Positions 11,066-29,712 of a DNA stretch of 32,000 nucleotides are shown here, one piece after another; position 1 is the first letter of the stretch; each line of letters starts with the position of its first letter. The position numbers and the translations under genes are program-made. The notes below the pieces were generated by a model that saw only the letters and a list, made by a program, of their open reading frames with translations, was not told the DNA's origin and made no database searches. The DNA is from Mycobacterium paraterrae. GTDB taxonomy: Bacteria > Actinomycetota > Actinomycetes > Mycobacteriales > Mycobacteriaceae. The stretch is taken from assembly GCF_022430545.2 (NCBI RefSeq), contig NZ_CP092488.2:1778784-1810783 (forward strand), in the 5' to 3' direction.

Positions 11066-11171
11066 GCTCCTTGCTGTGCCACGGTCGCCCACGGGCAAAC
11101 ACGTTGTCGTTCAATGGATATAGCTCGGTAAGAAATGCGCGCACGAATCGCTGCATCGTGTGGCCGTCACT

Positions 11172-11187
11172 ATCAGCGCGCGCTGAT
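11172..11187. promoter_or_regulatory. Perfect 16-bp palindrome ATCAGCGCGCGCTGAT upstream of azoR (candidate operator)
   Basis: The sequence is self-complementary over all 16 nt. It lies about 107-122 bp upstream of the azoR start in otherwise lower-GC intergenic DNA. Confidence 0.4.
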
Positions 11188-11487
11188 GTAGGTGCGAAAC
11201 AGATTGTGCAACTGCCGGTTTAGCAATACAGTGGTCGCCCATACGTGCGACGATAATGGAGCCTGCGCATCTGCCGATATCAAAATACTTGCCAGTGTGC
11301 GGCTGCTTGGCGCAGATCAGTTAGATCAGTACGGCTGCATGCTGCTGACCGCGAATCGGCACACGATGCGTTGCGCGATGGCCGCGTCGTACAGTCGCTC
11401 AGTTCGGCGAGATCCTCACCGGCAGAAGCTAAGTCCTTCGTCACAATCCGATGCCTCCCGCCCCTGAGCGCGGACGGGCGAAAACGG

Positions 11488-12078: not shown

Positions 12079-12525
12079 CCGTCAATGTTACTTCCATTAT
12101 CAGATAATCAGTCACTCTAAGTAGCGTGAGCTGGCAAAATTGCGCTGACGTGCTGCCAGAAGGTGTATGCGAGCAATGCGGCAACCGCTGCTGCTTGGCC
12201 GACTTCGCTAATCGTTGTCTGAGGGTAAACGTCGGACACGTCTGTCGGATCGGGAAATCACGTTGCAACGCACTGCCTGTCGCTTGGCCGCCGAAGTTTC
12301 TGACAGCGCGGGCCGCAACGCCGCCGATAGCGTTGACGTTAAGTGTGGACACATGACGCCTTGAGCGACGCCCAACCCGGCGTGCGCAAGCGGTCCAGCG
12401 TATGTCCGGTCTTAGCGTGGCTCAGTTTCACGGGAAGGAGGTCTCAGGTGGCCCATCTCTTCCGGACGTGGCGCCGCGGAGTGACCAGTGCCCCATGCCC
12501 TCCGACGAATCAGGAAGGATCCACC

Positions 12526-13002
12526 ATGAGCGAATCTGATGGCACCCCAGTGCAAATCGCTGCCTTCACCCGGAGGGCCTCGCAAGATGCATCGCTACTT
12601 AAAACCCTCAATGACGGCGTTTCCGAGCAGCTGCGTGCCAACGACGGTGTCGTTGTGGACGGCCCGATGGCCGGTGTCCCGCTGTTGTTGCTGCACACTG
12701 TGGGCGCGAGGTCTGGTGCATTCCGGGTGAACCCGTTGGTGCAGCTGGATTATCAAGGTCGCTGGTTCGTCGTCGGATCCTTCGGCGGACTCGACAAAGA
12801 CCCGGCATGGGTGCACAACCTGCGGGCCAACCCCCACGCGCGGGTCGAGATCGGCGCCACAGTGCACACCGTGACAGCACGAGAACTCTCCATGCCTGAA
12901 CGCGATGAGATCTGGGATGCGCTGGTCGTCATGAATCCCACCTTCGCCGAATACGAAAAGACTATGACCCGGGTCATGCCGGTGTTTGAATTACGTCGCT
13001 AG
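12526..13002 (+). CDS. Deazaflavin (F420)-dependent nitroreductase-family oxidoreductase (Ddn-like, PF04075-type)
   Basis: 158 aa from the ATG at 12526, with an AGGAAGGA RBS at 12512-12519. PLLLLHTVGARSG, DPAWVHNLRANPHARVEI and MPVFELRR match the family pattern. The upstream part of the ORF-track call (from 12343) lacks coding character. Confidence 0.85.
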   Translation: MSESDGTPVQIAAFTRRASQDASLLKTLNDGVSEQLRANDGVVVDGPMAGVPLLLLHTVGARSGAFRVNPLVQLDYQGRWFVVGSFGGLDKDPAWVHNLRANPHARVEIGATVHTVTARELSMPERDEIWDALVVMNPTFAEYEKTMTRVMPVFELRR

Positions 13003-13591
13003 TCGCACTTTGTTGGCGCTCGGCAGACGCCCGCCGACCACCTCGGGGAAAAGATGAATCCCGAACTCGCGAAGGCCCTGCGTCGAACGCGCGCCATCGT
13101 GAGTTCGTCCCAAAGGCGTCGTCGGTGTGTTAAGACCGTGGAACGCGCCTCTACTCCATCATCCTGCTCCTGGCGGCGTCGGCGCAGTTGGGTAACGGGG
13201 CCATCATCAAGCCCTCCGACCTTAGCCCAAAGACGCTGGGAGTTACTTTTGTTGAGCGGACAGCTCCACCCGCTACCGTCCCCACCGCAAGAAGCGACGA
13301 ACTGTTGCGGCAGAAGCGCTTTCGCGAACCTGAGGTTGATGGTAGGTGCGTGCCACGCGGCACACCGGGCGGCACGGTGACGTAACGAGCTCCGCGTAAC
13401 GTCTGCCGAGCGCAAAAAAGGCCACGTGCAACTACGCAGATCGACGGTGGCGCGTACATGTGTACCGGTTCGGATCGGTACTACGAGCCGCCGATCGTTC
13501 CCCGCTACTGATTCCGAAGCGCGTGTGGGTTGCCCGATAACCTCGGCTGATACCGCGCAAGAATGGACGTGATTGCGGTGCCCACCATCCC

Positions 13592-14299
13592 TTAGCCGTT
13601 GAGAATGGCGGCGTACCGGGAAGGCTCGGAAGTCAAAGTGTTCTTGATGGCGCGGCTGACCTCGTCGACCAGCACCTCACTCAGGTCAGCCTCCAGCCCG
13701 TTGATCGCGGCGGTGACCACTTGCTCGGGGTCGACTTTGTCGAGCGGAAAATTCGCGCCTAGTGACGTGTTCACCGGCCCGGAATGCAGTCCGACTACCA
13801 AAGTGCCTTGACTCTCAAGTTCAAGGCGCAGCGCATCGGTGAGACTCCACGCCGCAGCTTTGGCGGCGCTGTAGCCGGCCATATTCGGGAAGGAAAACCA
13901 GGACACCGCAGAGAGCGCGTTGACGATCGCGCCACCTCCATTGCGCCGAAGGATCGAGGCGAACGCTTCGGCGAGATTGATCGGGCCAAACACGTTAACT
14001 TCGAACTCGTCGCGGATTTTTGACAGGTCGCCGCCTACGAGCGGTTGAGCAAACAACACCCCTGCGTTGTTGATGATGATCTGCACGTCGCGGGCTTGCT
14101 CGGCAGCCGCGGCCACCTGGGCCTGGTCGGTCACGTCCAAAGCGAGCGGGATCACGTTATCCGATGCGGGGAGCGCATTCGTACCCCGGTCTCCGGCATA
14201 GACCTTAACTGCTCCACGCTCGCGCAGTTGTCGGACCCATTCTGCGCCGATACCTCGGTTGGCCCCAGTTACCAGCGCCACTGATCCCTCAATTTTCAT
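13592..14299 (-). CDS. Short-chain dehydrogenase/reductase (SDR), paralog 1
   Basis: 235 aa from MKIEGSVALVTGANRGIGAE (TGxxxGIG Rossmann motif). NNAG motif and catalytic YSAAK (YxxxK). The longer ORF-track start at 14401 is unlikely. Confidence 0.9.
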   Translation of the reverse strand: MKIEGSVALVTGANRGIGAEWVRQLRERGAVKVYAGDRGTNALPASDNVIPLALDVTDQAQVAAAAEQARDVQIIINNAGVLFAQPLVGGDLSKIRDEFEVNVFGPINLAEAFASILRRNGGGAIVNALSAVSWFSFPNMAGYSAAKAAAWSLTDALRLELESQGTLVVGLHSGPVNTSLGANFPLDKVDPEQVVTAAINGLEADLSEVLVDEVSRAIKNTLTSEPSRYAAILNG

Positions 14300-14977
14300 A
14301 GAAAATTCTTCCCTGTAGCAGTTGTTGTGACGAGGCCCTCCGGCATCGCCTACGCCGTTTGCAACGCTGGCCGTCTCACCGTGCCAACCGAGCGCGCCCA
14401 TCTTCAGTCCGTTACAACGTGTTTGACGTTAGGCGAGCCCGAATAGCCAGCGCTATCAAATTTTTAAGTGCTGCAGATCTCATCACCTCCTGTTACGTGA
14501 CGTGTGCGAGCCGCGTTCGCAAACTCCGATCCGTTGTTTTGTCTCAGAGCCCGTCGCTCGCCAAATCAGCACGGCCGCCGCAGTTCAAAGGCGTGCGCGC
14601 GGGCCAGTTCGGCGGACGACTCGCGGCTGGGGTTGGCGCTGCCCTTCCAGGGTGGAGTTGCGCGGTGGTGCGCAGACAATCAGTCGACCGCTGCTGGGTT
14701 CGTCGATGACGCTGCATCGTGGCCAGATCGAGCAGCGACGCAGGGCGCCACAAGGCACTCTCCGATCGGGTAGGTCGCGCCGGTGAGGTCCATTGAAACA
14801 CTGTATGTGCAAACAACTCTCATCAACAGCGGATCAGATACCGCTATGACCCAACGAGACGACTGGCAAAGATTGTGATAGCAGCAGTCCCCAGAAACTC
14901 GCTAACCTAGCGTGACAGTCGTGCCGTTCAGTCGTGGCGCAATCGAGACGCCGTCAAATCACTAGAGAGGAAACGCA

Positions 14978-15289
14978 TTGGGGGCCTTCGTTGTCTTCAC
15001 CACAGGCAAGGCGGTAGGCGACAACGAAGTCGAGAACTACCTGCACCGTATGAAGCCCAGCTTCGAGCCATACGAAGTCATCGTCCGTGCCCCCCGCCCA
15101 CCATCTGGCAACAGCGGTCCTCACCAGCCACGAATGGTGGTCGTCGAATTTCCCACCCTCAAAGAGGCTGCTGACTGGTACGCCGGCGAGTCTTTCCATA
15201 GCATTCGCGATCCTCAATTTCGAGGAGTCATCTACAGCCAGAGTGCATTTGAATCCATCGACGGCGTTGACGGATTCGTCTACTCGTGA
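14978..15289 (+). CDS. DUF1330 domain protein (copy 1)
   Basis: 103 aa with a TTG start preceded by GAGAGGA. RMVVVEFPTLKEAADWYAGESF resembles the DUF1330 core (..EFPS.e.A..WY.SpeY). Confidence 0.65.
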   Translation: MGAFVVFTTGKAVGDNEVENYLHRMKPSFEPYEVIVRAPRPPSGNSGPHQPRMVVVEFPTLKEAADWYAGESFHSIRDPQFRGVIYSQSAFESIDGVDGFVYS

Positions 15290-15353
15290 CGGCGAAATAA
15301 GTGCCCGTCCTTCACGAATCAGCGACGGACAAAACGACAACGGAGAGGCGACA

Positions 15354-15641
15354 TTGAGCGCGTACGCAATCTTCATCCGACAGCAAACGCATGATCCCGC
15401 GTCGCTGGCCCACTACGCCGACGCAGTCGCCACTCTTCTAGAAGACCACCCAGTCAAAGTGCTTGCGTTATACGGCAAGTGCAACGTGCTCGAAGGCGAC
15501 CTTGTCGAGGGTGCGGTGATCCTCGAATTCCCCACCCTCGAAGCCGCGAAAGCCTGGTACGGCAGCGCCGCCTACGCGCAGATACTCCCTCTTCGCCTCG
15601 ACGGCGCGACGTACTCTAGCTTCATCGTAGAAGGTATCTAG
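15354..15641 (+). CDS. DUF1330 domain protein (copy 2)
   Basis: 95 aa from the TTG at 15354, with a GGAGAGG RBS at 15342-15348. AYAIFIRQ..., GAVILEFPTLEAAKAWYGSAAYAQILPLR and the FIVEGI end are a classic DUF1330 pattern. The ORF-track start at 15087 overlaps copy 1 and is rejected. Confidence 0.75.
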   Translation: MSAYAIFIRQQTHDPASLAHYADAVATLLEDHPVKVLALYGKCNVLEGDLVEGAVILEFPTLEAAKAWYGSAAYAQILPLRLDGATYSSFIVEGI

Positions 15642-16033
15642 GGCAGATTTCCCTTATCCGGCAACGGCCTACGCGCGTAAGGGCGCCCATCAGTTCTGCA
15701 CAGCCGCGATGGTCATCGCCACCTAATGGCCGCTAATCAGATTGACGAACCAGGGCCAAGTTGGTGCCCGCGCAGTGGTGCCCGCCGCGGGATCATCGGC
15801 GTGAACGACGATCATGCGGCGGAATCGGCAAGCAGACAGGGCGGCCAAGCACCGATCGCGGGCGATGAGAGTTTCGCCGGCTGACCAAGTGCGGCGCACA
15901 GCGAACTCGTACTGGAGTGAATTTGCCGGGTCGCAGGATGATTCACGATGCGGCCGGCGTTGTTGACCGATGCATGTCAACAACCGGCGGATCTCTGACC
16001 GACTCGCCGCAGCAAAGAAGGAATTGCGATGCG

Positions 16034-16294
16034 ATGACGATCGAAGGGCGTTCGACTGCAGAAGAGACTGACATTGGCGAACCGAGTTGTGCGGTGTTGC
16101 TAGCAGGACTTTGGCGACTGGTCGATGGCGAGTTCGACACGGCGACATGCACACGGCCACATCACCATCTGGTCCGATGCTCGGAATGCCGCGCTCAACG
16201 TAGCCTGGCAGTGCGCTTTAAAGCGTTGATCGCCAGTCGATGTCGCCCAGAGCCGCGACCGCCGAACCTGCCGCCGCTCAGTTTGCCGCGATAG
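16034..16294 (+). CDS. ZAS-family anti-sigma factor, RshA/RsrA-like (mycothiol-system anti-sigma-R type)
   Basis: 86 aa from the ATG at 16034. CAVLLAGLWRLVDGEFDTATCTRPHHHLVRCSECRAQRSLAVRFKALIASRC aligns by eye with M. tuberculosis RshA (CAEVIAEVWTLLDGEC...RRHLEACPGCLRHYGLEERIKALIGTKC). This includes the H-x3-C-x2-C zinc motif and the upstream Cys. Confidence 0.7.
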   Translation: MTIEGRSTAEETDIGEPSCAVLLAGLWRLVDGEFDTATCTRPHHHLVRCSECRAQRSLAVRFKALIASRCRPEPRPPNLPPLSLPR

Positions 16295-16554
16295 ACCATG
16301 ATCGGATCGGTGATGCCTGATTCTCAACGGTATTCGGCTCCATCGACAGCTCGGCGCGTCCAGCCAGACGTTTCGCGTAATGCGATCGAAAGCGTCGTCC
16401 TGGGCGACATGGGTGAGGAACCGACCGGCTTGATTTTTTGGTAGCGCCTGCGGCTGTTGGCTTCTTAGCATGCGAGAGGCGTGCTTGCGGTGCGCCGTCG
16501 GGTAAGTTCTCGCGGTCGGTTTGACGCCACTGCGGGTTGTCTGGTGGAGGATGG

Positions 16555-17011: not shown

Positions 17012-17437
17012 ATGAGCGAAAAGATCGAACTCCCCTTGCCCGGCCTGCCCGGCCTCCTGCAGATGCAAATGCGCCGCGCCGGGTCTGATGCGTCGGTTGA
17101 GATCCAGGGCTCGATGGTGGTGCGTGACGAACACTTAGCGCCGTCGGGGTATCTGCACGGGGGAACGGTTGTCGCCCTTGCGGACACAGCGTGCGGTTAC
17201 GGTTGCCTTGGTTCGCTTCCCGTTGGTAGGACTGGTTTCGTCACGATCGAACTCAAGGCAAATTTCTTGGGTACCGCGCGGGTCGGGGACACTGTGGAAG
17301 TCCACGCCTCCGCCGTGCATCGTGGCGGGAGCACACAGATCTGGGACGCGAATGTCTCCCGTCGGCGGCCCGGGCGAGACATGGCGGCCGCCATCGCAAT
17401 TTTTCGGTGCACCCAGTTGCTCCTGGAGCCTCGTTAA
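17012..17437 (+). CDS. PaaI-family hotdog-fold thioesterase
   Basis: 141 aa. SGYLHGGTVVALADTACGYG, then ELKANFLGTARVGD and GGSTQIWDANV, match the PaaI/YbdB thioesterase pattern. Confidence 0.85.
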   Translation: MSEKIELPLPGLPGLLQMQMRRAGSDASVEIQGSMVVRDEHLAPSGYLHGGTVVALADTACGYGCLGSLPVGRTGFVTIELKANFLGTARVGDTVEVHASAVHRGGSTQIWDANVSRRRPGRDMAAAIAIFRCTQLLLEPR

Positions 17438-17713
17438 GGTAGCGCAACTCGGAATCCGGGTGGGTAAGTCGATTTCGATATCGTGGTTAAGCGCCCTCAC
17501 AGCGTGGTGCGGTCTGGATGACGCCGCAAGGGCGGCCGAGGATGGCTCGGTATCGCATTTCACGGTGCACCGACGGGTTTGGGGCGGGGGCTTGATCTGG
17601 AAACACAAGACTGGCCCGCGCCGCGTGCGTGTTGATCGGCTTCATGCGGAGGGCGTAGCGGCGTCGGCGACCTGGCGGACCGTGACGTCGCGGCTTGGGC
17701 GAGGTGTAGGAGC

Positions 17714-18595
17714 TCAAGGTAGTGCCGCGCGGTTGAAGTGCCAGGTGTGCGGCGGGCGCCTTACCAGGGGGTGAGGCGGTGTGGGCGGCTGGAACGCGGC
17801 GACGTCGCCAGTGGCGATGACGACGACGCGCCCCGTGTCGTTGTGATAAACCCGCACCTCAGCGTGAGGGTCGGCGGCGTCTAGGTGGTCGAGCAGTTCG
17901 GTCTGTGTCCACTGGCGAAGTTCATCAATGGCGTTGTCTGCGACGGCTTCCCACATCATCGTGTCCGGTGAGTGAGAGCCGTCGTGGTCGGCAGGCGCAG
18001 AGGTAGAGCGGTGCTTATTGCTACGGGGGTCGTGCGGTAGTCCGGTCCAGCGTTTGTCGTAAATGACGTTCAACCCGAGTTGGTCGATGGCGCGCACCGT
18101 GATGTGGTGGATCATGTCGTCCAAGCTGTCGGGGTGATGATAGAACGCGGGCATCGGTGGGCAGATGGAAACGCCGAGCCGGGCAAGTTCGAGCATGTTG
18201 TCCAGATGGATTGCGTTGAGCGGTGTTTCGCGTGGCAGCAGTACCAGGTTGCGGCGTTCCTTGAGGATCACGTCGGCGGCGCGAGTGATGAGGTTGTCGG
18301 CCAGACCATGTCGTATCGCCGCGAGGGTACGCATTGAGCAGGGAGCGACGATCATTGCCTCGACGCGAAACGATCCTGACGACACCGCGGCACCCTGGTC
18401 GCCCTCGCTATAGGTCACGTCGGCCAGTGACTGTACATACTTGGCGCTGTAGCCGGTTTCGGCGTTGATATTCATCCGTGCCCACCGCGACATGATCAAA
18501 TGTGTTTCAACGTCGGGGATTTCTCCGAGCCTTTCGAGCAGCCGTATCCCGAAGATCGCTCCGGTAGCACCGGTGATCGCGACTATTACGCGCAC
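17714..18595 (-). CDS. ubiX: UbiX-family flavin prenyltransferase (prFMN synthase) with a ~108-aa C-terminal extension
   Basis: N-terminal ~185 aa are canonical UbiX/Pad1: MRVIVAITGATGAIFGIRLLE, MIVAPCSMRTLAAI, VLLPRETPL. Residues 186-293 continue in frame with good third-position GC and no UbiX similarity. GTG start preceded by GTGAGG. Confidence 0.88.
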   Translation of the reverse strand: MRVIVAITGATGAIFGIRLLERLGEIPDVETHLIMSRWARMNINAETGYSAKYVQSLADVTYSEGDQGAAVSSGSFRVEAMIVAPCSMRTLAAIRHGLADNLITRAADVILKERRNLVLLPRETPLNAIHLDNMLELARLGVSICPPMPAFYHHPDSLDDMIHHITVRAIDQLGLNVIYDKRWTGLPHDPRSNKHRSTSAPADHDGSHSPDTMMWEAVADNAIDELRQWTQTELLDHLDAADPHAEVRVYHNDTGRVVVIATGDVAAFQPPTPPHPLVRRPPHTWHFNRAALP

Positions 18596-18749
18596 GACAA
18601 CCTCACGGTTTCATCGAGCGGGAGGATATGGCGGCGCGGAGCTATGGCCGTGTAGTCATGCTGTGTCGCAGTATTGCGGTGTAGGGCCGGGCTCGGTGAC
18701 GGGCCCGGCCCGGCCGGGGCTTGTGAGGCTTGAGGGTGCCCGGTGCGCG

Positions 18750-20300
18750 TCACGATGGGGCGGGGTATCCGTAGGTGGTCCACTTGCCGAGGACCTTGTG
18801 GCGCAGTTCAGCGGGAAAGTTATGCCAGAAGTCAGCTTTGACAGGCCGGTCCTGTTCGGTCCATTCGTCACGGTGTAATCCGACCAGGATGGCCTTGGCG
18901 GCGCTCATAGATCGTTTTTCGGTGCTCGTGAGGTACACGATGAGCGGTACGGCGACCTGATCGTGGATGAAGATGGTGTCGTCGACTGGATGGACGCGGG
19001 TGGATAGCGCCCACAAAACGTCGCCATCGTCGGTAGGGTCAACGTCGTCTTCGACCACGAGGATCCGAGGCGCGACCATTCCGGGCTTGGTTCCCATCAC
19101 GTGAAGGCCGAGCTTGTGGGCGAATTCGTGACGCGAGGTGATTCCCGATAGTTCGCGCCAGTTGATTGGCACGGTGATCACCAGGAGGTGGTTGGCGCCT
19201 TGGAATGGCAGATACACACCGGTGACGGGAAAGTCGTGCTTGCGCAAGTCGGCCAACATGACTGCGGAATTGCTGATGCCCCAGACGGTGTGGTCTTCCT
19301 CAGCGGGGTAGCCCGCGGCGACGACGGGCAGAATCGCGTTGTCGCGATGGCTGATTGCGGTGACGTGGTAGACCGGTTTGGCGGAGCGGCCCGCCGGGAG
19401 GAGGTAACCGGGGTACTCCGACATCGGACCTTCTAGGGCGGTCTCTTCGATGCTTACCCAGCCCTCGATGACGATCTCTGAGGAGGCGGGCACGTGCAGG
19501 TCGTTGGTGTGGGCCTTGACGACGTCGATCGGCTTTTTGAGGTAGGCACCTATTGCGCCGGCCTCGGAGATATGGTCAGGAAGTGGCGCGCCGGCGAAAT
19601 ACGGTACGACCGGCTCTTGGCCCAGTGATAAGGCGAACGGCATATTTTCGCCGCGCTCTTTCCAGACTCCGAAGATCTGCCCGAGATGTTGCATGGGTTG
19701 GAACAGCCCAACCATGGTGTTTTTGTCGCGCAACGCGATTCGGGAGATCGACCAGTTGGTCCATTCTCCGTCGGGATGTGGGGCGACGATGGTGCCGAAG
19801 GTGTTGATGAAGCGGTCACCGTCGCCGCAGTGGATTAGTGGGGTGGGCAGCGCGAACAGATCGATGTCGTCACCGGTCACGATGTTGGCTTGGAATGGGG
19901 CGTTGTCGACTATGCGCGGTGCGATGGGTGGGGCGTCGACCACGCGGGAAAGAGCTTCGACGATGTCAGTGCCGGTCGCGGTCACGGGCAGACCTAGCGC
20001 AATAGCGGCGCGGATAAGGGCGCGTCCGGGCAGTGCGCTGACCCCGCCGGGGGCGCCGAGTACCCGAAATCCTGGTTGAGAGTCGTTGATGCGGTTGAAC
20101 AGTGGCGCTGGAGCCCCGGTTTCGAGGACGTGGCGGATGATTGCGCCGATCTCAAGGTTCCAGTCGACAGGTTCGTCGATTTCGACCAGGTCGCCGTGCT
20201 CGCGCAGTGCGGTGATGAACTCACGCAGGTCTTTGAGGTGCTGAGGTGTGAAGCCCGGATCGGTATACCGGCTCGGGGCTGGTGAACCCACGTGTGTCAC
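18750..20300 (-). CDS. UbiD-family prFMN-dependent (de)carboxylase, Fdc1-like
   Basis: 516 aa with a GTG start 4 nt after GGAAGGA. LPTPLIHCGDGDRFINTFGTIVAPHPDGEWTNWSISRIAL, TNDLHVPASSEIVIEGWVSIEETALEGPMSEYPGY and FPAELRHKVLGKWTTYGY align by eye with A. niger Fdc1. The Arg (SISR) and the E-x4-E pair (EGPMSE), corresponding to the Fdc1 R173/E277/E282 catalytic set, are conserved. Confidence 0.9.
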   Translation of the reverse strand: MTHVGSPAPSRYTDPGFTPQHLKDLREFITALREHGDLVEIDEPVDWNLEIGAIIRHVLETGAPAPLFNRINDSQPGFRVLGAPGGVSALPGRALIRAAIALGLPVTATGTDIVEALSRVVDAPPIAPRIVDNAPFQANIVTGDDIDLFALPTPLIHCGDGDRFINTFGTIVAPHPDGEWTNWSISRIALRDKNTMVGLFQPMQHLGQIFGVWKERGENMPFALSLGQEPVVPYFAGAPLPDHISEAGAIGAYLKKPIDVVKAHTNDLHVPASSEIVIEGWVSIEETALEGPMSEYPGYLLPAGRSAKPVYHVTAISHRDNAILPVVAAGYPAEEDHTVWGISNSAVMLADLRKHDFPVTGVYLPFQGANHLLVITVPINWRELSGITSRHEFAHKLGLHVMGTKPGMVAPRILVVEDDVDPTDDGDVLWALSTRVHPVDDTIFIHDQVAVPLIVYLTSTEKRSMSAAKAILVGLHRDEWTEQDRPVKADFWHNFPAELRHKVLGKWTTYGYPAPS

Positions 20301-20362
20301 AGATCCTTCCTTTCTCTGTAGTTGATCATCGGCGCGCGGCGAGCAATGAAGGGTTCAGTTCG

Positions 20363-20415
20363 TCGCGAGTGCACGGGTACATCGCGAAATCGCGAGTGCT
20401 GAAGATCTCGAGTGT
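20363..20415. promoter_or_regulatory. Three direct copies of TC(G/T)CGAGTG(C/T) in the UbiD / MDR divergent intergenic region
   Basis: TCGCGAGTGC at 20363-20372 and 20390-20399, and TCTCGAGTGT at 20406-20415. An extra TCGCGA lies at 20382-20387. The array sits between the UbiD start (20300, minus strand) and the MDR start (20635, plus strand). Confidence 0.4.
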
Positions 20416-20634
20416 TCATAACAGGGCTTGTTTCCGCGGACGGCATATCCAGCGAATGCTATTCGGGGTGAATCGGTGGCGCTGTCAAGATTTTCGGCAT
20501 GCGCTGCGAAAGATGGGCGATGAAGATTGTGATAGCGCAGCGTGGGGGGGCTGGGTAGTGATGCAGGGTGTGCCGCGCGCATCAAACCGATGAGTGACGG
20601 CGTGCACAGAATCGATGTGAGGGAGGACGCGGTT

Positions 20635-21627
20635 GTGAAAGCGTGGTTGTGGGACGGGGGAGCGGGACTGGACCACTTGCATGTGCAGCAGACGGCCGAT
20701 CCTGTTCCCCAACCCGGCGAGGTTGTGCTCGAAGTGCACTACGCAGCGCTCAATCCCGCCGATCGGATGCTCGCCGAACGTCGTTACCCCTATCCGGTCG
20801 ATCCGCCGCTGCCGCACGTGCTGGGCCGCGATGGCGTTGGCACCGTCATTGCCGTCGGTGACGGCGTGACTGATGTGTCGGTGGGCGAGCGGCGCGTCAT
20901 TCTGCGTGGCGACACCGGCGTCAATCGGTGGGGCACGTTCGCCGAACAGGTGGCGCTGTCAGCGAGCACCCTTGTCGAGATTCCCGAGGGCTGGACTGAA
21001 GAACAAGCGGCGGGAGCGACGTTGGTGTATCTGTCGGCTTATCACGCCCTGACCATGTGGGAGCCGCTCAAGGAGCACTCGGTCGTGCTGGTCACTGGTG
21101 CCTCTGGCGGGGTGGGCTTGGCCGCCGTGCAGTTAGCCGTCGCGATGGGCCATACGGTGGTGGCGCTGACCCGCAGCGAGGACAAACAGCGCCGACTCCG
21201 CGAGGTGGGCGCTGCTTATGCGTTTAATCCCAATGACCCGCAGTGGGTTTCCCTTGCCGAAGACGCGCTAGGCGGACGCGGGGTCGATTTGGCGGTTGAG
21301 ACGATCGGCGGCCCGCTGTTCCCCCAAGTCATCGAAACCATGGGCGAGCTGGGTCGGCTCAGCCTAGTCGGCGAACTCGGCGGCCCAGTGCCCAATTTCT
21401 ACACCGGGACGTTGTTTTCGCGACGTCTCAGGATCGGCGCCATGGCACTAGCCGGCTACACCTCCGAACAACATCACACGGCCTGGCGCGAACTGCTGGC
21501 AGTGCTGGCGGCCTCGTCGGCCCGCCCCCTCATCGATCGAGTATTTCCGTTCGACCAACTCGTGGATGCCTTCGCACGCCTCGCCGAAGGCCCGTTGGGC
21601 AAGGTGGTCGTCAATATCAAGGCTTGA
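20635..21627 (+). CDS. Medium-chain dehydrogenase/reductase (quinone oxidoreductase / zinc-type ADH-like)
   Basis: VKAWLWDG..., GEVVLEVHYAALNPADR, VLGRDGVGTVIAVG and the cofactor loop VLVTGASGGVGLAAVQLA. The GTG at 20635 is preceded by GGGAGGA, and the ATG at 20590 is an alternative start. Confidence 0.85.
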   Translation: MKAWLWDGGAGLDHLHVQQTADPVPQPGEVVLEVHYAALNPADRMLAERRYPYPVDPPLPHVLGRDGVGTVIAVGDGVTDVSVGERRVILRGDTGVNRWGTFAEQVALSASTLVEIPEGWTEEQAAGATLVYLSAYHALTMWEPLKEHSVVLVTGASGGVGLAAVQLAVAMGHTVVALTRSEDKQRRLREVGAAYAFNPNDPQWVSLAEDALGGRGVDLAVETIGGPLFPQVIETMGELGRLSLVGELGGPVPNFYTGTLFSRRLRIGAMALAGYTSEQHHTAWRELLAVLAASSARPLIDRVFPFDQLVDAFARLAEGPLGKVVVNIKA

Positions 21628-22022
21628 CCATGCCGTGATACGTGAAAGGTGACGGCGCCGATTGACGCCACGGCATGAAAGCAGTTGTCGGCGTTGATGG
21701 TTGGTGATCCAAGATCGTCAGGATTTTCGCTGACGGTGACCGGGTTCTGTGCAGGGAGTATTCAGCCCGCCATGGCTGAGCCATACAGCCACGGCACCGA
21801 TCGACATCGCCCTGGTCGACGGCGCGAGCGGTCGTAGCCAAGATAGATGTCGATGCTAATTCCATGACTGCCAGTGATTTTCAGGTACTGCGATTGCCAC
21901 GCTGTCGCGGGTATCGATGAGATTGGAGCTGATGCGATCGAGAGGTGTGGGCATGTTTCGCCGATGCAATTCAGAGTCCGCGATCACCGCGGCGCTTTTG
22001 ACGCGGTGAGAGGGTTCGGTGG

Positions 22023-25000
22023 TCACACCAACCCCAGCACCGACAAATCGGCGACGTACTTGCTGATCAGCGTCCGGTCAAGGTGCGGGATGTCGTGAAC
22101 GTCGCCGACTCCGGCGCTGCGCACGGCATCGCGGAACACTGCAGTCGGAGCTGACGCGCCTCGCACTGGATGCTGTGGGCTGCGGAACGCGTCGAGCAGA
22201 GCCAGCACCGAGCGTCGCCGCTGATGTGCGGGAAGGCCGCGCAGCGCACCTTCGAAGCGTCGCACCCACTCGGCGTAGTCCTCGATGCGGGTGATCGCGG
22301 CGCCGCCGGCGATCAGCCAGTCCACGATCGCGTCCAATGAGATGTCATCGTCGTGTGGATTCATCACATCGAAGGACGTAAATCCCGCGCGCTGGTCGGC
22401 GCCGATCGTCGCGATCGCCTCGGCGACGAAACGAACGGGAAGCCCGTCGTAGTGCGCACGAGGCCGCATTCCGGAACCGTCACCGAGGTAGAAGCTGCCC
22501 GGGGCAAGGCCAGTCACCAGCACACTGAGCAGCAAGCGGGTGAACATGTCGGTCTCGTTGAGCTGTCCAGGGTAACGGTCGTGCCCCAAAATCATGTCGG
22601 CGCGAAAGACGTTGACCGGCAGTCCGCACAGGTCGTGCGCTTCTCGCAGCAGCACTTCGCCGGCCCATTTGCTGGTGGCGTAGCCGTTGGCGTAGCTGTC
22701 GTCGAGGAGGCGGTGTGGGCTGACCTGCCGGATGTCGCCGTCCTCGACGAAATCCGCTACGCCCAGTGTCATTGCCACTGTAGACAAATACGTCACAGGC
22801 TTGATGCGCTCAGTGATCGCGAGCCGGATGATCTCCGCGGTGCCAACGACATTGGGTCCGAACAACTGTCCGTAGGGCAGCACATGATTGACCAGGGCGG
22901 CGGGATGGACGACCATGTCGACGTCGCGAGCAAGCCGCCGCCAGGTCGGTTCGTCGAGCCCGAGATTGGGCTCGTTGATATCGCCGGGGATGACTTCGAG
23001 ATGGTGAGCGGCCAGCCTGCGAAAATCGGCCAGGGCTGCTCCGTCGCCGACGGCGAACGCGTCCTCAAGGCGGCGGGTTGCGGCGGCAGCGTCACGGCCG
23101 CGCACCAGTGCGATCAATCGGCCGCCGTTGTCTGACAGCCGTTTTAGCCATTCCAGGGCCAGGAATCTGCCGAGCCAGCCGTTGGCTCCGGTCAGTAGCA
23201 CGGTGGTGATCGTGTCCGCCGGGCTCGCGGCGTGGGGCGCTGCCCGCAATGTGTCTGCGTCGATGAAGCGTGCCAGGACCAGATCGTTGGCGGCGACTGA
23301 GGTGGCGTGGGGGCCGTGCACTTGTGCGGCGGTCGGGCGGGCACCGTCGGAGGCGCGTTCACCGTCGATGTATGTGGCCAGAGCTGTGAGGTCGCTCGAT
23401 GGCCCGATGATGACGCCCACCGGCACCTCGACGCCGAAGATTTCTTCGAGGAGCTTGGAGAAGCTCAGCGCCGACAACGAGTCGCCGCCGAGGTCGATGA
23501 AATGTGCGTCGCGGTCGGGTTGATCGTCCGGCAGCCCTAGCAGCGTTTGCGCCGCTTGAATGACGGTATCGAGTGCCGGTCCGGTGCCGCCGGCGCGGCG
23601 CAACGCCGAAAGGCCCTCAGAGCGCGCCGCGTCCAGTTCAGCGTACACATGCTCGAGTTGTTGCCCGTAGCGTTCTTTCAGTTTGGGGCGCAACAACTTT
23701 CCCACACCAGACAGTAGGCCGTTGCCAGGTGTGAAGGGCTCGTCGTCGATGAGGAAATCGGCGGGCACCTCGTAGGACTGCAATTGGTGGATCCGCGCGA
23801 CTTCTCGCAGCGATTCGCGCACGGCGGTCTTCAGCGCGAAGCGGTCTTGATACTTTGATCGCGCCTCATCGGTGGGTATCACCACCGCCAGCAGTGTTGA
23901 GCGAGCGCTGTTGCCGTAGAGGAAGATTTGACCTACCAGCGGTGCGCTGGCGAAAACTGTCTCCAGGTTCGCGACCGCGACGAATTCGCCCTGGGCAAGT
24001 TTGATGACGTTGTTGCGCCGGTCGACGTAGCGGACCTGGTTGGGCGCGATCTCGGCGACCACGTCACCGGTTCGGTAGTAGCCTTCGGCGTCGAACGCGT
24101 CGGCAGTGACATCGGGGCGCTTGAAGTATCCCGGCATGGCCGTCGCCGATTTGATCAGGAGCTCACCGCGCGGGTGCGGTCGATCGGTGGTGAAGTATCC
24201 CAGCTCGGAGACGTCGGTCAGCCGGTAGTCAAGTACCGGCGGGCGTGCGATGACACCGTCGCGTGATACCACGCCGATCTCGGTCAGGCCGTAGGCGTCG
24301 ATGACCGGTGCGTCGAGGGTAGCGCGTATGAACTCACGCATCTGGGATGACAGCGGCGCGGTCGTCACCATGCCTAGCAGCACCCGGCCCCCTAGCACCT
24401 GTTCACGCAACTCGGCCTTCGCGACAAGGTCGGCGACCGCAGCATCTTCGCCGGCGGACACGAGTTGGTCTACCCGCGTCTGGTGGCGCTGGTGCAGCAT
24501 GTCGACAACCCTGGGGACTAGCAGGATATGCGTCGGCCGCACTAGTCGCCAGTCATCGAACAGCGTCGACAAGTCGCTTCGTGCAACGAAATAACTGATA
24601 CCACCTGCTTGCAAGGCAACTGACAGAGCCGAGCGTCCGGCCATGTGATTCAGGGGCGCGAAGTTCACGTTGACGACAGGCAGCGTTGAGTCGATGACCA
24701 GGTTGGCTGTCCACAACGCGGTGACCATCCGTTCAGTCCACATGGCGCCTTTCGGCAGCCCGGTACTGCCAGATGTGTACAGGATCATGGCCAGCCTGCT
24801 GTCGTCGTCATCCATGTACGGTGCCGGTGCAGCGCGGCCGCGGCCGCGCAGGATGACGGTGCCGAGATCGTCGACGGTGACATCGTGTTCGGCCAGACGG
24901 GTGCGGGCAGCCTCTACGGAGGCACGGTGCCAGCGGACCCGGGTGTCGTAGTCGAAGGCCACAAGCCGCCGCACTGACGGCGTGTTCAGCGCGGCCTCGA

Positions 25001-25508
25001 TCCCGATGTCGAGATAGTCCATGCTTACCGTTAGCACTGCGGGCTGCGCTTCTTCGAGCAGCGGTACCAGCCGCGACGCCGCAAGGTTGTGCTGCAAAGG
25101 AACCGAGACGAGACCGAGATAGTTGTTGGTCAGATCGATGGTGAGGTAATCGGCGCTGGCGAAGCCGATCATAGCGACGAGATCGCCTGGGGTGAGCGGA
25201 TTTTCGTCAGAACTCCAAGCGGCGGCAATGTCTTTGACGTTCGACCACACCTGGGCATAGCTCACTGTGTCGAAGTGCGGCTGCAACTCGACCTCGCCTT
25301 CGGCGTTGAGCGTGGCAGCGCGCTGACCCAGCGCTGGCCGATCGGCGTAGCCGGTCATCATGATCTCGAGGACCTCAGCCAACCGCAAGCCCGGGCGGCG
25401 GAATGCCTCCACAACGGCCGGGTCAGGTTTGGCGGTCTGCAATTGGGAGATTTCGGTGACTTCCGGTACCGCTGCGCGGGTGCGGGCGTCAATCGCCTCT
25501 GAGCTCAT
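22023..25508 (-). CDS. car: Carboxylic acid reductase (adenylation - carrier protein - thioester reductase; FadD9/CAR-like)
   Basis: 1161 aa. AMP-binding motifs ILYTSGSTGLPKGAM and YRTGD. Phosphopantetheine site LGGDSLSALSF (Ser677, codon 23478-23480). C-terminal NAD(P)-binding reductase domain LLTGANGWLGRFL with YANGYATSKWAGE. GAAGGAAGGGA RBS. Confidence 0.93.
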   Translation of the reverse strand: MSSEAIDARTRAAVPEVTEISQLQTAKPDPAVVEAFRRPGLRLAEVLEIMMTGYADRPALGQRAATLNAEGEVELQPHFDTVSYAQVWSNVKDIAAAWSSDENPLTPGDLVAMIGFASADYLTIDLTNNYLGLVSVPLQHNLAASRLVPLLEEAQPAVLTVSMDYLDIGIEAALNTPSVRRLVAFDYDTRVRWHRASVEAARTRLAEHDVTVDDLGTVILRGRGRAAPAPYMDDDDSRLAMILYTSGSTGLPKGAMWTERMVTALWTANLVIDSTLPVVNVNFAPLNHMAGRSALSVALQAGGISYFVARSDLSTLFDDWRLVRPTHILLVPRVVDMLHQRHQTRVDQLVSAGEDAAVADLVAKAELREQVLGGRVLLGMVTTAPLSSQMREFIRATLDAPVIDAYGLTEIGVVSRDGVIARPPVLDYRLTDVSELGYFTTDRPHPRGELLIKSATAMPGYFKRPDVTADAFDAEGYYRTGDVVAEIAPNQVRYVDRRNNVIKLAQGEFVAVANLETVFASAPLVGQIFLYGNSARSTLLAVVIPTDEARSKYQDRFALKTAVRESLREVARIHQLQSYEVPADFLIDDEPFTPGNGLLSGVGKLLRPKLKERYGQQLEHVYAELDAARSEGLSALRRAGGTGPALDTVIQAAQTLLGLPDDQPDRDAHFIDLGGDSLSALSFSKLLEEIFGVEVPVGVIIGPSSDLTALATYIDGERASDGARPTAAQVHGPHATSVAANDLVLARFIDADTLRAAPHAASPADTITTVLLTGANGWLGRFLALEWLKRLSDNGGRLIALVRGRDAAAATRRLEDAFAVGDGAALADFRRLAAHHLEVIPGDINEPNLGLDEPTWRRLARDVDMVVHPAALVNHVLPYGQLFGPNVVGTAEIIRLAITERIKPVTYLSTVAMTLGVADFVEDGDIRQVSPHRLLDDSYANGYATSKWAGEVLLREAHDLCGLPVNVFRADMILGHDRYPGQLNETDMFTRLLLSVLVTGLAPGSFYLGDGSGMRPRAHYDGLPVRFVAEAIATIGADQRAGFTSFDVMNPHDDDISLDAIVDWLIAGGAAITRIEDYAEWVRRFEGALRGLPAHQRRRSVLALLDAFRSPQHPVRGASAPTAVFRDAVRSAGVGDVHDIPHLDRTLISKYVADLSVLGLV

Positions 25509-26363
25509 GGGATGTCCCTTCCTTCGACATCGGTGTGCAACGCGATGTGTTGCCGCCGGCTTCCCTCATCGAGCCTTCAGGGCTTATCTGCTGTGCGTTC
25601 GAATCCACCTCGCAGCGGGCGCAGGGCGGGCCTAAAATGTCTGCACGACAACGTATTTGAGGCAACGAACGCGCGTTGTATTCAGCGAGTGAAGTGGCAT
25701 TAATACGACGAATCGTGGCAGAAATCGGCGCCTCTGCCGGTCTGGACCGGCGACCAGTCGTCAACGCCTGACGACGCCACCGCTCAACCAGCCAAGGTCA
25801 CCCGACTCGCAGATGTTGCATACAACTCTCACGTTGCCTCGACGCTCGTTACCGTGCGGCCCTCCTCCTGCACCACCCTGCAGCGACGCAATGATCTCGC
25901 CCGAAAGGAGGTATCGCAAAAGATGTTGACAGCGCCAACCGGCGATCCTGCGTTGGGTCCGCACCGCGATTTGACCAGTGGGGCAACCGAACACCCGTGA
26001 AGAGCTCCGCGATGGCTTTGGGGGATTGCACGAGATGCGCGTCACTGCCAACGATCTCATCGAGGTCGTGCTGGCCTTAACACCAAGGCGGCGGGGCACC
26101 TTACGCCCTGTGGGCCGATTCGGCTGGGGGCCGTCGAGCTTGACGGCGTTCGCATGACACCGGTACTCACCTGGCTCGCCGCCGGCCGGGTCCTTCCAGG
26201 CGATCAGCTATACCGGATTCGCCTTGCCGCACCTACTTTCTGTGGCGCACAGTCACTTCCGGCTGGTCGCCGGTCAACGGCCTGACCGCCGTCACTGTCG
26301 CCGCAATCGCTTGTGCGGTGTGGCTGGCAGGCACCACGCGAGCCAGCCAGCGCGATGAAGGAA

Positions 26364-26397
26364 GGTCCCGCCCCGGAGACGTTGCCGGGGCGGGACC
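26364..26397. terminator. Perfect 13-bp GC-rich hairpin (candidate terminator 3' of SDR paralog 2)
   Basis: GGTCCCGCCCCGG (26364-26376) pairs with CCGGGGCGGGACC (26385-26397) around an 8-nt loop. It lies 26 nt beyond the SDR2 stop. There is no clear U-tract, as is common in mycobacteria. Confidence 0.55.
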
Positions 26398-26422
26398 TTA
26401 GGGGAGTTGATCGACGAGCTGC

Positions 26423-27130
26423 TCAGCCGCCCAGGATCGCTGTGTAACGCGACGGGTCTGAAGTGAGCGTGCTTTTAACCACGCCACTGATATCGTCGGC
26501 GAGCACCTCGGTGTGGCCGGCCTGCAGTCCGTCCAGCGCGGCTTTAACGACCTGCTGCGGCTCGACGTTGTCGATCGGGAACTGACTGCCCATCGTGGTG
26601 TTGACCGCGCCGGAGTGCAGTCCGACCACAAGGGTGTTCTGGCCGGCGAGCTCGAGGCGCAGCGCGTCGGTGAGGTTCCATGCCGCCGCCTTGCTGGCGC
26701 TGTAGCCCGCCATGCCCGGGAACGAGAACCACGACACCGCCGACAGAGCGTTGACAAGGGCGCCGCCACCGTTCGCCTTGAGCACGGGCGCGAACGCCTG
26801 CGCCACCGAGACGAGCCCAAACACGTTGGTCTCGAATTCCTGGTGAACCTCGTCGAGGTCAGCGGTGAGCAACGGTTGGCTCGTGGCGATCGCGGCGTTG
26901 TTGATCACGATCTGGACGTCGTGCGCCTGCCGAGCGGCTGCGGCCACCTGAGCCTTATCGGTTACGTCGAGGGCGATCGGCACCACACCCTCGGCTTGGG
27001 AAACTGTTTCGGGATTACGGGCGGCGGCGTAGATCTTCGCGGCGCCACGCTCACGAAGTTGACGAACCCATTCGGCGCCGATACCGCGATTGGCGCCAGT
27101 GACCAGAACTACCGAACCCTTGATGTCCAT
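26423..27130 (-). CDS. Short-chain dehydrogenase/reductase (SDR), paralog 2
   Basis: 235 aa from MDIKGSVVLVTGANRGIGAEWVRQLRERGA. YSASK catalytic motif. Same length as the SDR at 13592-14299 and about two-thirds identical to it by eye. The ORF-track start at 27511 is an unlikely extension. Confidence 0.9.
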   Translation of the reverse strand: MDIKGSVVLVTGANRGIGAEWVRQLRERGAAKIYAAARNPETVSQAEGVVPIALDVTDKAQVAAAARQAHDVQIVINNAAIATSQPLLTADLDEVHQEFETNVFGLVSVAQAFAPVLKANGGGALVNALSAVSWFSFPGMAGYSASKAAAWNLTDALRLELAGQNTLVVGLHSGAVNTTMGSQFPIDNVEPQQVVKAALDGLQAGHTEVLADDISGVVKSTLTSDPSRYTAILGG

Positions 27131-27809: not shown

Positions 27810-28736
27810 GTGCCCGAATACGCTGCGAGACTGCTCCTGCGCACAGACACCGTGTCAGCGTGGGATGTGGTGTGCCCTGGGTTGACTCGGGATCGCGCCG
27901 AGGAGGAGTCCGCGCCGGGTGCCCGGTTCGTCTTTCCGTACCGCGGTGTCTATGTTCATGCAGTCGGCCTCAGCGAGTACGTCGCCGACGCCAATCACGT
28001 AGTGATCGTCAATGCCGACGAGCCGTATCAGGTCAGTCATCCTGTTGATGGTGGAGATGCCACGCTCACTATCGGCATCGACCCTGTCGCGTTACACGAA
28101 CTCGCTCCACCGCAATATCTCAGTGCGCCGGGTCGTCTCGCATCGAATTGCCGCGTTCTGCGCATCGATGCGCACACCCAGATCACCGCGGCACAATTGC
28201 GTCAACGTCTCGTGCGGTGCACGATCAACCCAGCCGCCGCCGAGACGGTCGCCCTCGATCTGATCCGGCACACGCTAAGTGCCAACGGATCTCACACGGC
28301 CCGCAACCGAGACGGCCGCCCGCAACGAATGGTTGACCGTGTCAAGCTTCTATTGTCCGCTGACCCTTCGCGCAAGTGGGCCCTTGAGGAAATCGCTCAA
28401 TACATCGGCGTGACACCGGTCTATCTCACCGACGCCTTCAGACGGGTTGAGGGTATCCCGTTCTACCGCTACCACATTCGGCTCCGATTGGTCCACTCGC
28501 TCGCGGTGCTCGCCGACTACGACACCGTCGAATCGCTCGCCCACAGGTTCGGTTTCCATAGCCACAGTCACTTCAGCTCAGCGTTCAAACAAGCGTTTCA
28601 GCAAACCCCGTCGGAGTTTAAACGCTCAATCAGTCCCGGCGGTAGTGCAGGTCTCGCCCATCGCGAAATACGCGCCGTCGACGACGCGAGGGTCTACGTG
28701 TCTCGGGCGCTGCGGGCCAGCAAGCCGTTTTCCTAG
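27810..28736 (+). CDS. AraC-family transcriptional regulator
   Basis: C-terminal double HTH: WALEEIAQYIGVTPVYLTDAFRRVEGIPFYRYHIRLRLVHSL...LAHRFGFHSHSHFSSAFKQAFQQTPSEFK. The GTG at 27810 lies 5 nt after GGGAGGA. Confidence 0.85.
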   Translation: MPEYAARLLLRTDTVSAWDVVCPGLTRDRAEEESAPGARFVFPYRGVYVHAVGLSEYVADANHVVIVNADEPYQVSHPVDGGDATLTIGIDPVALHELAPPQYLSAPGRLASNCRVLRIDAHTQITAAQLRQRLVRCTINPAAAETVALDLIRHTLSANGSHTARNRDGRPQRMVDRVKLLLSADPSRKWALEEIAQYIGVTPVYLTDAFRRVEGIPFYRYHIRLRLVHSLAVLADYDTVESLAHRFGFHSHSHFSSAFKQAFQQTPSEFKRSISPGGSAGLAHREIRAVDDARVYVSRALRASKPFS

Positions 28737-29005
28737 GCGATGCCGATACCGGCGAGACCGATGACCAACGTGTCAGACAACGATGAATAACCCTGTTTAC
28801 CAACCTCGATGCACCAAGCCGCAGTTAGTTCAGCGACGCGTTCACACATGTTCAGACGACGCCGCATCCGCGTCGCTCCTGCGTTGCTCGTGTCGTACAC
28901 AAAGACCAAAGATTTCGACAGTGCTTCGGCGTCTCTATCCTGTAGCGTCGCCAAAGAAATTCTCGAAACATCCGGCTACGCTGCATCATCCGAAAGGTTT
29001 GCCGA

Positions 29006-29704
29006 ATGCTCACCTTCTCCCACCGCAATCCCGAGATGCAGCTCGAGCACGGCCGCACCGCCCTCGTCCTCGCCGACATCCAAAACGAGTTTCTCGCAGA
29101 GAGCGGGTCGTACTATCCGCTGATCGAAGACACCCTCAAACAGCACAGCGTCATCGAGCATCTCGAGCAACTGCTGCAGTGCGCACAAGACAACGATTAC
29201 ACCGTCATCCATTCCCCGCACTACTACTTTCCGACCGACGGCCAGTGGGTGGCCCCGGCGGGCGCCATCGCGGATTACCTCATCGGTGTCCCTGGGGGTT
29301 TCGTGTTGCGGACAGATCCCGTTGACCTCGACGGGCTGCCCGGTTCCGGGGCCGACTATTTCGAACCCTTCAAGAAGTATCTGATGAACGGCAAGACCGC
29401 GAATACCTCACCACACAAAGGCTTTTCGACGTGGCACAACGACGTGATCAAGCAGCTGCGGATGCGACGCATCGAGAAGGTGATTATGGCGGGTCCGGTC
29501 GGCAACCTTTGCCTGGAAAGCCACATGCGCGACATCATCGAGCACGGCTTCGAGGTCGCCATGGTGCGGGATGCGGTCGCGGGCGGGCGCAACGACGAAG
29601 GTGACGCCTACACCGCCGCGATGGTCAACTACCGCTTCATGGCCAACGCGCTATGGACCACCAACGAAACTTTGACCCGGATGACCGCAGCAGCGCAGGC
29701 CTGA
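29006..29704 (+). CDS. Isochorismatase-family cysteine hydrolase
   Basis: 232 aa. TALVLADIQNEF (Asp of the triad) and VIMAGPVGNLCLESHMRD (nucleophile Cys context) fit the isochorismatase-like hydrolase fold. Confidence 0.8.
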   Translation: MLTFSHRNPEMQLEHGRTALVLADIQNEFLAESGSYYPLIEDTLKQHSVIEHLEQLLQCAQDNDYTVIHSPHYYFPTDGQWVAPAGAIADYLIGVPGGFVLRTDPVDLDGLPGSGADYFEPFKKYLMNGKTANTSPHKGFSTWHNDVIKQLRMRRIEKVIMAGPVGNLCLESHMRDIIEHGFEVAMVRDAVAGGRNDEGDAYTAAMVNYRFMANALWTTNETLTRMTAAAQA

Positions 29705-29712
29705 GGTGTGAC

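Follow-up and report, generated by a model that had tools for sequence, protein, structure and literature searches.

In a 32,000-nucleotide stretch of the Mycobacterium paraterrae genome (the window, in what follows), a gene for a full-length carboxylic acid reductase (CAR) lies next to what appears to be a genuine, and rare, functional unit: a (de)carboxylase of the UbiD family, which depends on prenylated flavin mononucleotide (prFMN), its partner UbiX, and a zinc-less medium-chain dehydrogenase/reductase (MDR) of the quinone oxidoreductase (QOR) type. The unit recurs in sister loci and, in one of these (L124), it once again adjoins a CAR. In that one respect, recurrence in a second and divergent locus, the grouping of UbiD, UbiX, MDR and CAR would be more than chance. 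That the CAR is also functionally linked to the unit, the whole making up a rare mycobacterial acid-processing cluster that sends one class of acid down decarboxylative and reductive routes, is a proposition for which we regard the chances as evenly balanced.

UbiD/UbiX decarboxylases and CARs are sought-after biocatalysts, which chemists have paired artificially for converting C-H bonds and CO2 to aldehydes. A natural, recurring UbiD-CAR locus would indicate acids for which both enzymes have evolved, and would provide a matched pair. The very rare and uncharacterised UbiD subfamily described below, with its fixed partner reductase, may also lend itself well to the discovery of substrates in mycobacteria.

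Five open reading frames (ORFs) are at issue, each of them lying exactly where the original prediction had placed it: a thioesterase (17012-17437, + strand), UbiX (17714-18595, -), UbiD (18750-20300, -), the MDR (20635-21627, +) and the CAR (22023-25508, -). Domain searches uphold the enzyme classes of all five.

UbiD: a rare relative of HudA and TtnD

The window UbiD (516 residues) carries PF20695, PF01977 and PF20696 (UbiD_N, UbiD and UbiD_C), all above their cut-offs, scores 288.7 against TIGR00148 (cut-off 244.85), and is 100% identical in sequence to an NCBI entry from M. paraterrae. Its R187, E290 and E295 align with R173, E277 and E282 of Fdc1. These three residues, and the predicted metal ligands N182, H205 and E246, are invariant in an eight-member clade. 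The earlier claim that an Arg/Glu/Glu of the Fdc1 type is kept is borne out both by alignment to Fdc1 and by conservation across the clade.

The closest solved structure is that of HudA (PA0254; 4ip2, 7abn), the prFMN-dependent pyrrole-2-carboxylate decarboxylase of Pseudomonas aeruginosa. It shares the three-domain fold and the Arg/Glu/Glu of the window protein, and matches it at 42% identity with 408 bits, or 491 when a profile of the clade is used. For TtnD the score is 403 bits (477 by that profile), and for the fungal Fdc1 of A. niger ~350 bits (405-425). Fungal Fdc1 and Streptomyces TtnD are acrylic-acid decarboxylases that operate by 1,3-dipolar cycloaddition; they share the R/E/E triad, and the window protein, with its catalytic residues kept, falls within the Fdc1/HudA/TtnD superclade. 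The pocket residues (Y296, D336, W340, V451 and L453) permit a finer comparison. Y296 and W340 have their counterparts in HudA Y279 and W322; HudA N318 is Asp here and Asn in a sister subclade, while HudA F432 and M434 give way to V451 and L453. (A HudA N318D variant still fully decarboxylates pyrrole-2-carboxylate [PMC7976604].) Fdc1, in contrast, has M283, T323 and I327 in place of Y296, D336 and W340. The label "Fdc1-like" is therefore right for the residues of the mechanism only; the pocket is nearer to that of HudA. In TtnD, positions 336 and 451 (window UbiD numbering) are occupied by T and N, respectively.

More specific assignments were tried and failed. NCBIfam models for BagN/FevL (443, cut-off 1000), VdcC (226, cut-off 650) and phenylphosphate carboxylase (234, cut-off 565) all reject the protein, as do the UbiD equivalog (160, cut-off 788) and the model for the futalosine-pathway decarboxylase (186, cut-off 496). 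By the last two results the protein is not a decarboxylase of ubiquinone or menaquinone synthesis, and the initial argument against a ubiquinone role stands. Since every specific model failed, UbiD is best described as belonging to a putative uncharacterised subfamily of the acrylic/heteroaromatic-acid decarboxylase superclade.

It is also a rare protein: at 58% identity or above, only eight clusters are found among 5.8 billion protein clusters. Two subclades are distinguishable, one with Asp at position 336 (the window protein and P0002-P0004, 70-82% mutual identity) and one with Asn (P0005-P0008, 77-85%), with 60-65% identity between them. About 120 uncharacterised proteins, at 47-75% identity, are nearer to the window UbiD than is HudA.

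The UbiD-UbiX-MDR unit

Five sister loci (L039, L042, L043, L124 with five similar contigs, and L125) have one and the same arrangement: a GlxA-type AraC regulator is divergent from UbiD, which is followed, with short gaps, by UbiX, a tautomerase and an MDR that is 65-71% identical to the MDR of the window. In all close homologous loci with sufficient contig, UbiX comes after UbiD. It is from the repeated UbiD-UbiX-tautomerase-MDR order that the standing of UbiD, UbiX and MDR as one predicted functional unit derives. Among the close relatives whose contexts were read, the surroundings differ from any noted for HudA: these UbiDs keep company with a UbiX that is extended by a further domain, with an MDR of the QOR type, with a tautomerase or thioesterase, and with a CAR. 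Besides the tautomerase, companions in the sister loci comprise regulators of the GlxA/AraC kind, a major facilitator superfamily (MFS) transporter, and genes of the FAH and amidohydrolase families; these companions look catabolic.

The tautomerase of the sister loci is a Tautomerase_3 protein with the canonical Pro1 (fMet-PIYQCWS), encoded between UbiX and MDR; it is located at 12502-12915 in L039, 4338-4751 in L042, 3032-3436 in L126 and about 11370-11765 in L124. In the window neither a tautomerase nor any remnant of one is present, and a search of four of its intergenic gaps for pseudogene traces of a tautomerase, an alcohol dehydrogenase (ADH), an NmrA-like protein or a regulator found none.

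The MDR (330 residues; its start at 20635 is backed by alignments of homologues) had been put down as a "quinone-oxidoreductase/ADH-like" protein, and the two halves of that description have fared differently. The protein is devoid of cysteines, and the GHE of zinc ADHs is replaced in it by GRD. In the PDB it comes closest, at 60-112 bits, to VAT-1, QORs of the zeta-crystallin type, 2-haloacrylate reductase and enoyl reductases. Against TIGR02824 (quinone oxidoreductase/PIG3) it scores 166 (cut-off 296.8), which makes that the nearest branch without conferring membership. The protein thus belongs with the zinc-less quinone/ene-reductases and, because it lacks cysteines, has GRD and has QOR, VAT-1 and enoyl reductase relatives, is not of the ADH type. 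Candidacy as a zinc ADH was examined separately and rejected: there are no Cys ligands, and the Ahr and AdhP models give 61 against 470 and 47 against 344, respectively. The proposed conversion of aldehyde to alcohol consequently falls as a task of the window MDR, an enzyme of ene-reductase type; it survives indirectly, by way of an Ahr-like ADH that follows the CAR in L124.

The CAR and its neighbourhood

The assignment of the 1161-residue CAR is secure. It scores 1648.7 against the NF041592 equivalog (cut-off 1300), has AMP-binding, PP-binding and NAD_binding_4 domains, and retains all of the key motifs: the phosphopantetheine attachment site (GGDS677), the Rossmann motif (GANGWLG774) and YxxxK near residue 946. 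The CARs of Nocardia, Segniliparus and M. marinum (5msc, 5msp and 5mso) match it at 1228-1323 bits (1322 for 5msc). Like the proteins of N. iowensis (5msc) and M. marinum (5mso) and like FadD9, it has the complete adenylation-thiolation-reduction (A-T-R) architecture originally proposed. Its nearest relatives among species-representative genomes are 60-67% identical, and its neighbourhood is unlike that of all 35 homologue loci compared. As had been noted at the outset, no phosphopantetheinyl transferase adjoins it; none turned up in those genes and ORFs of the window that were checked.

The case for linkage comes from L124, in which the UbiD operon, ending with the MDR, faces a convergent group consisting of a CAR, an Ahr-like zinc ADH and an NmrA-like gene (the last of these being nearest to the MDR). 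The genes are packed closely there, 19-23 bp apart. The L124 CAR is cut off by the edge of its contig, and its R domain (residues 774-1161) is 69.8% identical to the window's; UbiD and MDR are 61% and 71% identical. The adjacency to a CAR is thus repeated in a related genome, and the refuting condition named in the original prediction, a lack of such adjacency in every relative, does not hold.

How much is to be made of a single recurrence depends on what else was in a position to recur. A survey from the UbiD side covered 91 homologue loci, 36 of them with 3.5 kb or more of flanking sequence on one side; L124, which belongs to the N336 side of the rare clade, is the one with a CAR. Within the clade, only the window and L124 extend more than ~1.5 kb past the 3' end of the MDR gene, so that both of the informative cases carry a CAR. 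Between these two, UbiD-UbiX is inverted relative to the MDR, yet the convergent MDR-CAR junction is retained. Elsewhere within the CAR subclade, a CAR identity of 83% or more is needed for any flanking gene to be shared (L003, L006 and L004). At CAR identities of 80% or less no flanking gene is held in common, the UbiD, UbiX and MDR of the window and L124 excepted. The window CAR is, moreover, bracketed by module-associated genes, the MDR on one side and, on the other, an AraC-family gene whose homologue is the L040 regulator (see below). Either the adjacency has outlived reshuffling or it arose twice; either is suggestive of selection, in two lineages.

A number of findings weigh against this reading. 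The CAR is never part of a UbiD operon: in both loci it belongs to a separate, convergent unit, which in the window stops 395 bp short of the MDR stop codon. Only two occurrences are known, and these may share a single ancestral arrangement. The R domain of the L124 CAR is closer to those of six CARs lacking a module within 10 kb (81-85% identity) than to that of the window CAR (70%), which in turn is 70-74% identical to those of the same six; the CARs would appear, that is, to track the phylogeny of their hosts and not the module. A transfer of CAR and module together as a mobile block, which we also considered, is rejected on these grounds. Nor is the unit itself invariable. L126 has UbiD, UbiX and tautomerase followed by a class II aldolase instead of an MDR, in L042 the MDR is followed by an MFS transporter, and L040 and L041, which hold the closest relatives of the window UbiD, have other genes upstream of it. 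A possible sign of shared control is no more decisive. The 12-mer TGGCGCTGTCAA occurs in the divergent UbiD/MDR intergenic region (20301-20634), presumed to contain the promoters, at 20477-20488 (+), and again in the non-coding gap upstream of the CAR at 25926-25937 (-). The two copies have the same orientation relative to the MDR and CAR genes, with similarity reaching ~18 nt, but 26 of 500 simulations attain the same alignment score (p ~0.05 before allowing for multiple testing) and the 12-mer is absent from all other loci. As a shared operator it is a weak lead.

These considerations feed the most substantial alternative, namely that the adjacency is coincidental or inherited: a self-contained UbiD-UbiX-MDR unit next to an unrelated housekeeping CAR of the FadD9 type, in a variable region that follows dnaB and that is, as described below, a mixture of unrelated redox genes. 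In a scan from the CAR side, limited to one genome per species, none of the 34 homologues found (48-67% identity; Mycobacterium, Mycolicibacterium, Rhodococcus and metagenome-assembled genomes) has within 10 kb a UbiD, UbiX, MDR or thioesterase, or a counterpart of any other gene of the window. Neither UbiD, UbiX nor MDR lies within 10 kb of the CAR in L135, even though that CAR is 84-85% identical to the CAR of L124, and 90 of the 91 UbiD-homologue loci are without a CAR. Against coincidence it has to be set that the four genes are together again in L124 at 61-71% identity, a divergence that no other flank survives, that they are tightly packed there, and that the MDR/CAR junction has held while UbiD-UbiX was being rearranged. 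On this balance coincidence is a serious possibility, although we think it somewhat improbable.

Two observations on other loci may be recorded here. The ftsH-folE region adjoins about 18 of the remoter CARs (56-64% identity). L135, on a 2.2-Mb metagenomic contig and also near the ftsH-fol region, has a CAR split by a frameshift into 802 and 340 residues, with a hotdog thioesterase directly before it (6958-11023 in all). That thioesterase is unrelated in sequence to the one in the window, and L135 represents a separate thioesterase-CAR pairing. As for plasmids, they yielded only three distant UbiD matches (31-44% identity), of which the Streptomyces one stands beside an aldehyde dehydrogenase and not a CAR. 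Aldehyde dehydrogenases are found next to UbiDs of other clades in L129 (3087-4406, beside a VdcC-like UbiD) and L136 (6819-8306, beside a 44%-identical UbiD on a Streptomyces plasmid), and show a wider putative link of UbiD to the acid/aldehyde node.

What the cluster might do

In the scheme to which we give an even chance, UbiX would prenylate FMN and supply the resulting prFMN to UbiD, which would strip CO2 from a heteroaromatic or alpha,beta-unsaturated acid, probably one with a hydrogen-bond donor that is read by Asp336. The zinc-less MDR would reduce an activated C=C bond or a quinone in the same pathway; we infer this because such reductions are typical of its branch and because a tautomerase, which would generate a keto or enone form, precedes it in the sister loci. 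Drawing on the same pool of acid, the CAR would convert acid, ATP and NADPH to aldehyde, which in L124 the Ahr-like reductase would take on to the alcohol, and an MDR working alongside a CAR could saturate enal or enone products. The use of such a cluster would lie in the catabolism or detoxification of one class of acid. Of the two readings that had been offered originally, the one that envisaged alternative decarboxylative and reductive fates for the same acids is matched by this scheme, with the proviso that the coupling to the CAR is no better than evens. There is a precedent of sorts for two fates within one organism: Nocardia iowensis cells are reported by Li and Rosazza, in 2000, to decarboxylate vanillate to guaiacol and also to reduce it, by way of CAR, to vanillyl alcohol.

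The other original reading was of a native, CO2-fixing route of C-H functionalisation, in which UbiD carboxylates a (hetero)arene or alkene, the CAR traps the acid irreversibly and a reductase proceeds to the alcohol. If true, UbiD carboxylation with CAR trapping would constitute a biological route of C-H carboxylation and reduction. UbiD enzymes are reversible and engineered UbiD-CAR cascades do work (PMC8988006, PMC7976604): HudA or AnInD, combined with a CAR, carries C-H carboxylation through to aldehydes (PMC8988006). In L124, too, the CAR is followed by an Ahr-like aldehyde reductase, the pair facing the UbiD operon. The two enzyme classes and the kind of acid are the same in window and cascade, but the engineered pairing is artificial, and decarboxylation is the more likely direction here. 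The sequence bears no sign of direction, no result favours net carboxylation, the companions in the sister loci look catabolic, and the window MDR is not an aldehyde reductase. Engineered UbiD-CAR cascades run at bicarbonate levels far above the physiological. The initial remark that no described natural locus was known to combine these genes holds, as regards UbiD and CAR, for the literature that was searched in full text, which yielded the engineered cascades only. Native CO2 fixation by this cluster is accordingly rated very unlikely.

An equally improbable suggestion is that the genes are a fragment of specialised metabolism of the TtnD/SmdK/BagN kind, UbiD installing a terminal alkene or vinyl group and the CAR providing an aldehyde handle: the best NCBIfam models are indeed those of bagremycin/ferroverdin synthesis (BagN/FevL for UbiD, 443 bits; BagM/FevK for UbiX, 297 bits) and TtnD is almost as close as HudA, but the scores are far under the cut-offs of 1000 and 420, neither the window nor the sister loci have polyketide synthase, non-ribosomal peptide synthetase or tailoring genes, and, while Y296 and W340 fit HudA and TtnD alike, D336 resembles HudA N318 and not the Thr of TtnD.

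The C-terminal domain of UbiX

UbiX passes its family models (TIGR00421, 250.2 over residues 1-185, cut-off 108.9; NF004685, 250.3, cut-off 188; PF02441, 147 bits), so that its identification as a flavin prenyltransferase, making prFMNH2, stands. Its core (17960-18595, -) nonetheless accounts for only about residues 1-203 (to ~212) of 293; the remainder is an additional conserved domain of ~80 residues (17717-17959, -) with the motif MWE..A..L..W..Y.S.D.RVV.IA..P.PP..L.RPPHQW.F. The extension is kept in five fused homologues and is seen, outside the window, in L040, L039, L042/L043, L126 and L129; the UbiX proteins of L124 and L125 are cleanly without it. No Pfam family covers it, and 31 matches were obtained from 1.84 billion representative proteins, mostly stand-alone proteins of 80-150 residues.

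The AlphaFold2 model of the extension (pLDDT 95.4) has a beta-alpha-beta-beta...beta order, ferredoxin-like with the second helix missing. Foldseek places it nearest to dimeric alpha+beta barrel proteins (LsrG, PA3566 and members of the antibiotic biosynthesis monooxygenase, or ABM, family), at TM 0.55-0.65 and in every case with E > 0.03; the Pfam ABM model, PF03992, finds sub-threshold matches in 3 of 29 members of the extension family (the best at 19.6 bits, cut-off 23.1). The closest stand-alone homologue, P0124, is encoded in L129 between ubiX and a VdcC-like ubiD, and a more distant one, P0130, adjoins an aldo-keto reductase. The L129 UbiD is just 26% identical to that of the window, and the pairing of P0124 with so remote a UbiD argues for an extension role that would concern the cofactor and not the substrate.

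Small proteins that assist the activation of UbiD enzymes and are encoded with ubiX and ubiD are known: PhdC (an HpaC-like maturase), LpdD (a prFMNH2 chaperone), YclD and VdcD/BsdD/EcdD (PMC13040415). The ABM-like domain resembles them in being tied to ubiX, by fusion as well as by gene order. It differs in its ferredoxin/ABM-like fold and in its being fused to UbiX, and searches of the PDB by sequence and by fold produced no match to PhdC or LpdD. If it functions along similar lines, it would probably aid the maturation of prFMN or its hand-over to UbiD, and could be a further prFMN helper of some practical consequence, activation being a bottleneck in heterologous expression of UbiD enzymes. 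That it is a new maturation or hand-over factor is, all the same, a tentative proposal, which we rate as possible but doubtful. A full-text literature search came upon nothing that connects prFMN with ABM proteins.

Thioesterase, regulator and flanking DNA

The thioesterase at 17012-17437 (+) is a 4HBT hotdog protein (PF03061, 62 bits) whose membership in the module is doubtful. Its designation as PaaI has to be withdrawn: the score against TIGR02286 is 39.6 (cut-off 118.9), and just the generic hotdog model TIGR00369 is passed (54.7, cut-off 36.6). Models for MenI reject it as well (50 against 185, 33 against 226). Its gene begins 8 bp after a DUF5078 gene on the same (+) strand and is convergent with UbiX. 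In L040, whose UbiD is 74% identical to the window's, the order is AraC-F420H2 quinone reductase-UbiD-UbiX-hotdog thioesterase, the last of these, directly after UbiX, being 40-47% identical to the window protein.

The original prediction had also held that no regulator was nearby, which proved incorrect. An AraC-family gene (27810-28736, +; HTH_18/HTH_AraC) lies 2.3 kb beyond the CAR, on the side away from the module. Its product is 54% identical over 173 residues to a fragment of the AraC protein encoded directly upstream of the Ddn-UbiD-UbiX-thioesterase series in L040, and that fragment is its sole homologue among the loci that were fetched. For thioesterase and AraC alike, then, there is one supporting occurrence. 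The AraC gene, an isochorismatase-like hydrolase (29006-29704) and a second QOR-type MDR (29713-30696), all on the + strand, make up an apparent operon (27810-30696).

Between CAR and AraC are a non-coding gap and a short-chain dehydrogenase/reductase (SDR) gene. The gap (25509-26422), in which the 12-mer occurs for the second time, is at 914 bp unusually long for an intergenic region in mycobacteria and holds no convincing ORF, Rfam family or pseudogene trace. The SDR (26423-27130, -), on the strand of the CAR and divergent from AraC, has no homologue next to UbiD or CAR in the other loci and hence no comparative support for membership. No Rfam family was matched anywhere in the window at gathering thresholds, a scan for promoters and terminators gave nothing above shuffled expectation, and the G+C content at 17-21 kb (0.61-0.64) does not contrast with the rest of the window.

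A conserved core, ponA-GT87-ssb-rplI-dnaB, makes up the left third of the window, so that the cluster occupies a variable region downstream of dnaB. The genes around dnaB (ponA, GT87, ssb and rplI) match the conserved mycobacterial region Rv0050-Rv0058, and dnaB itself (6671-9295, +) contains an intein, with a LAGLIDADG_3 match between the DnaB domains. The interval from dnaB to the cluster (10376-16471) is occupied by a series of redox genes and genes of unknown function. They encode a Flavodoxin_2/FMN reductase, an ABATE/zf-CGNR protein, an SDR, two DUF1330 proteins and an F420H2-dependent quinone reductase (12526-13002), the last of which is 36% identical to its counterpart beside UbiD in L040.

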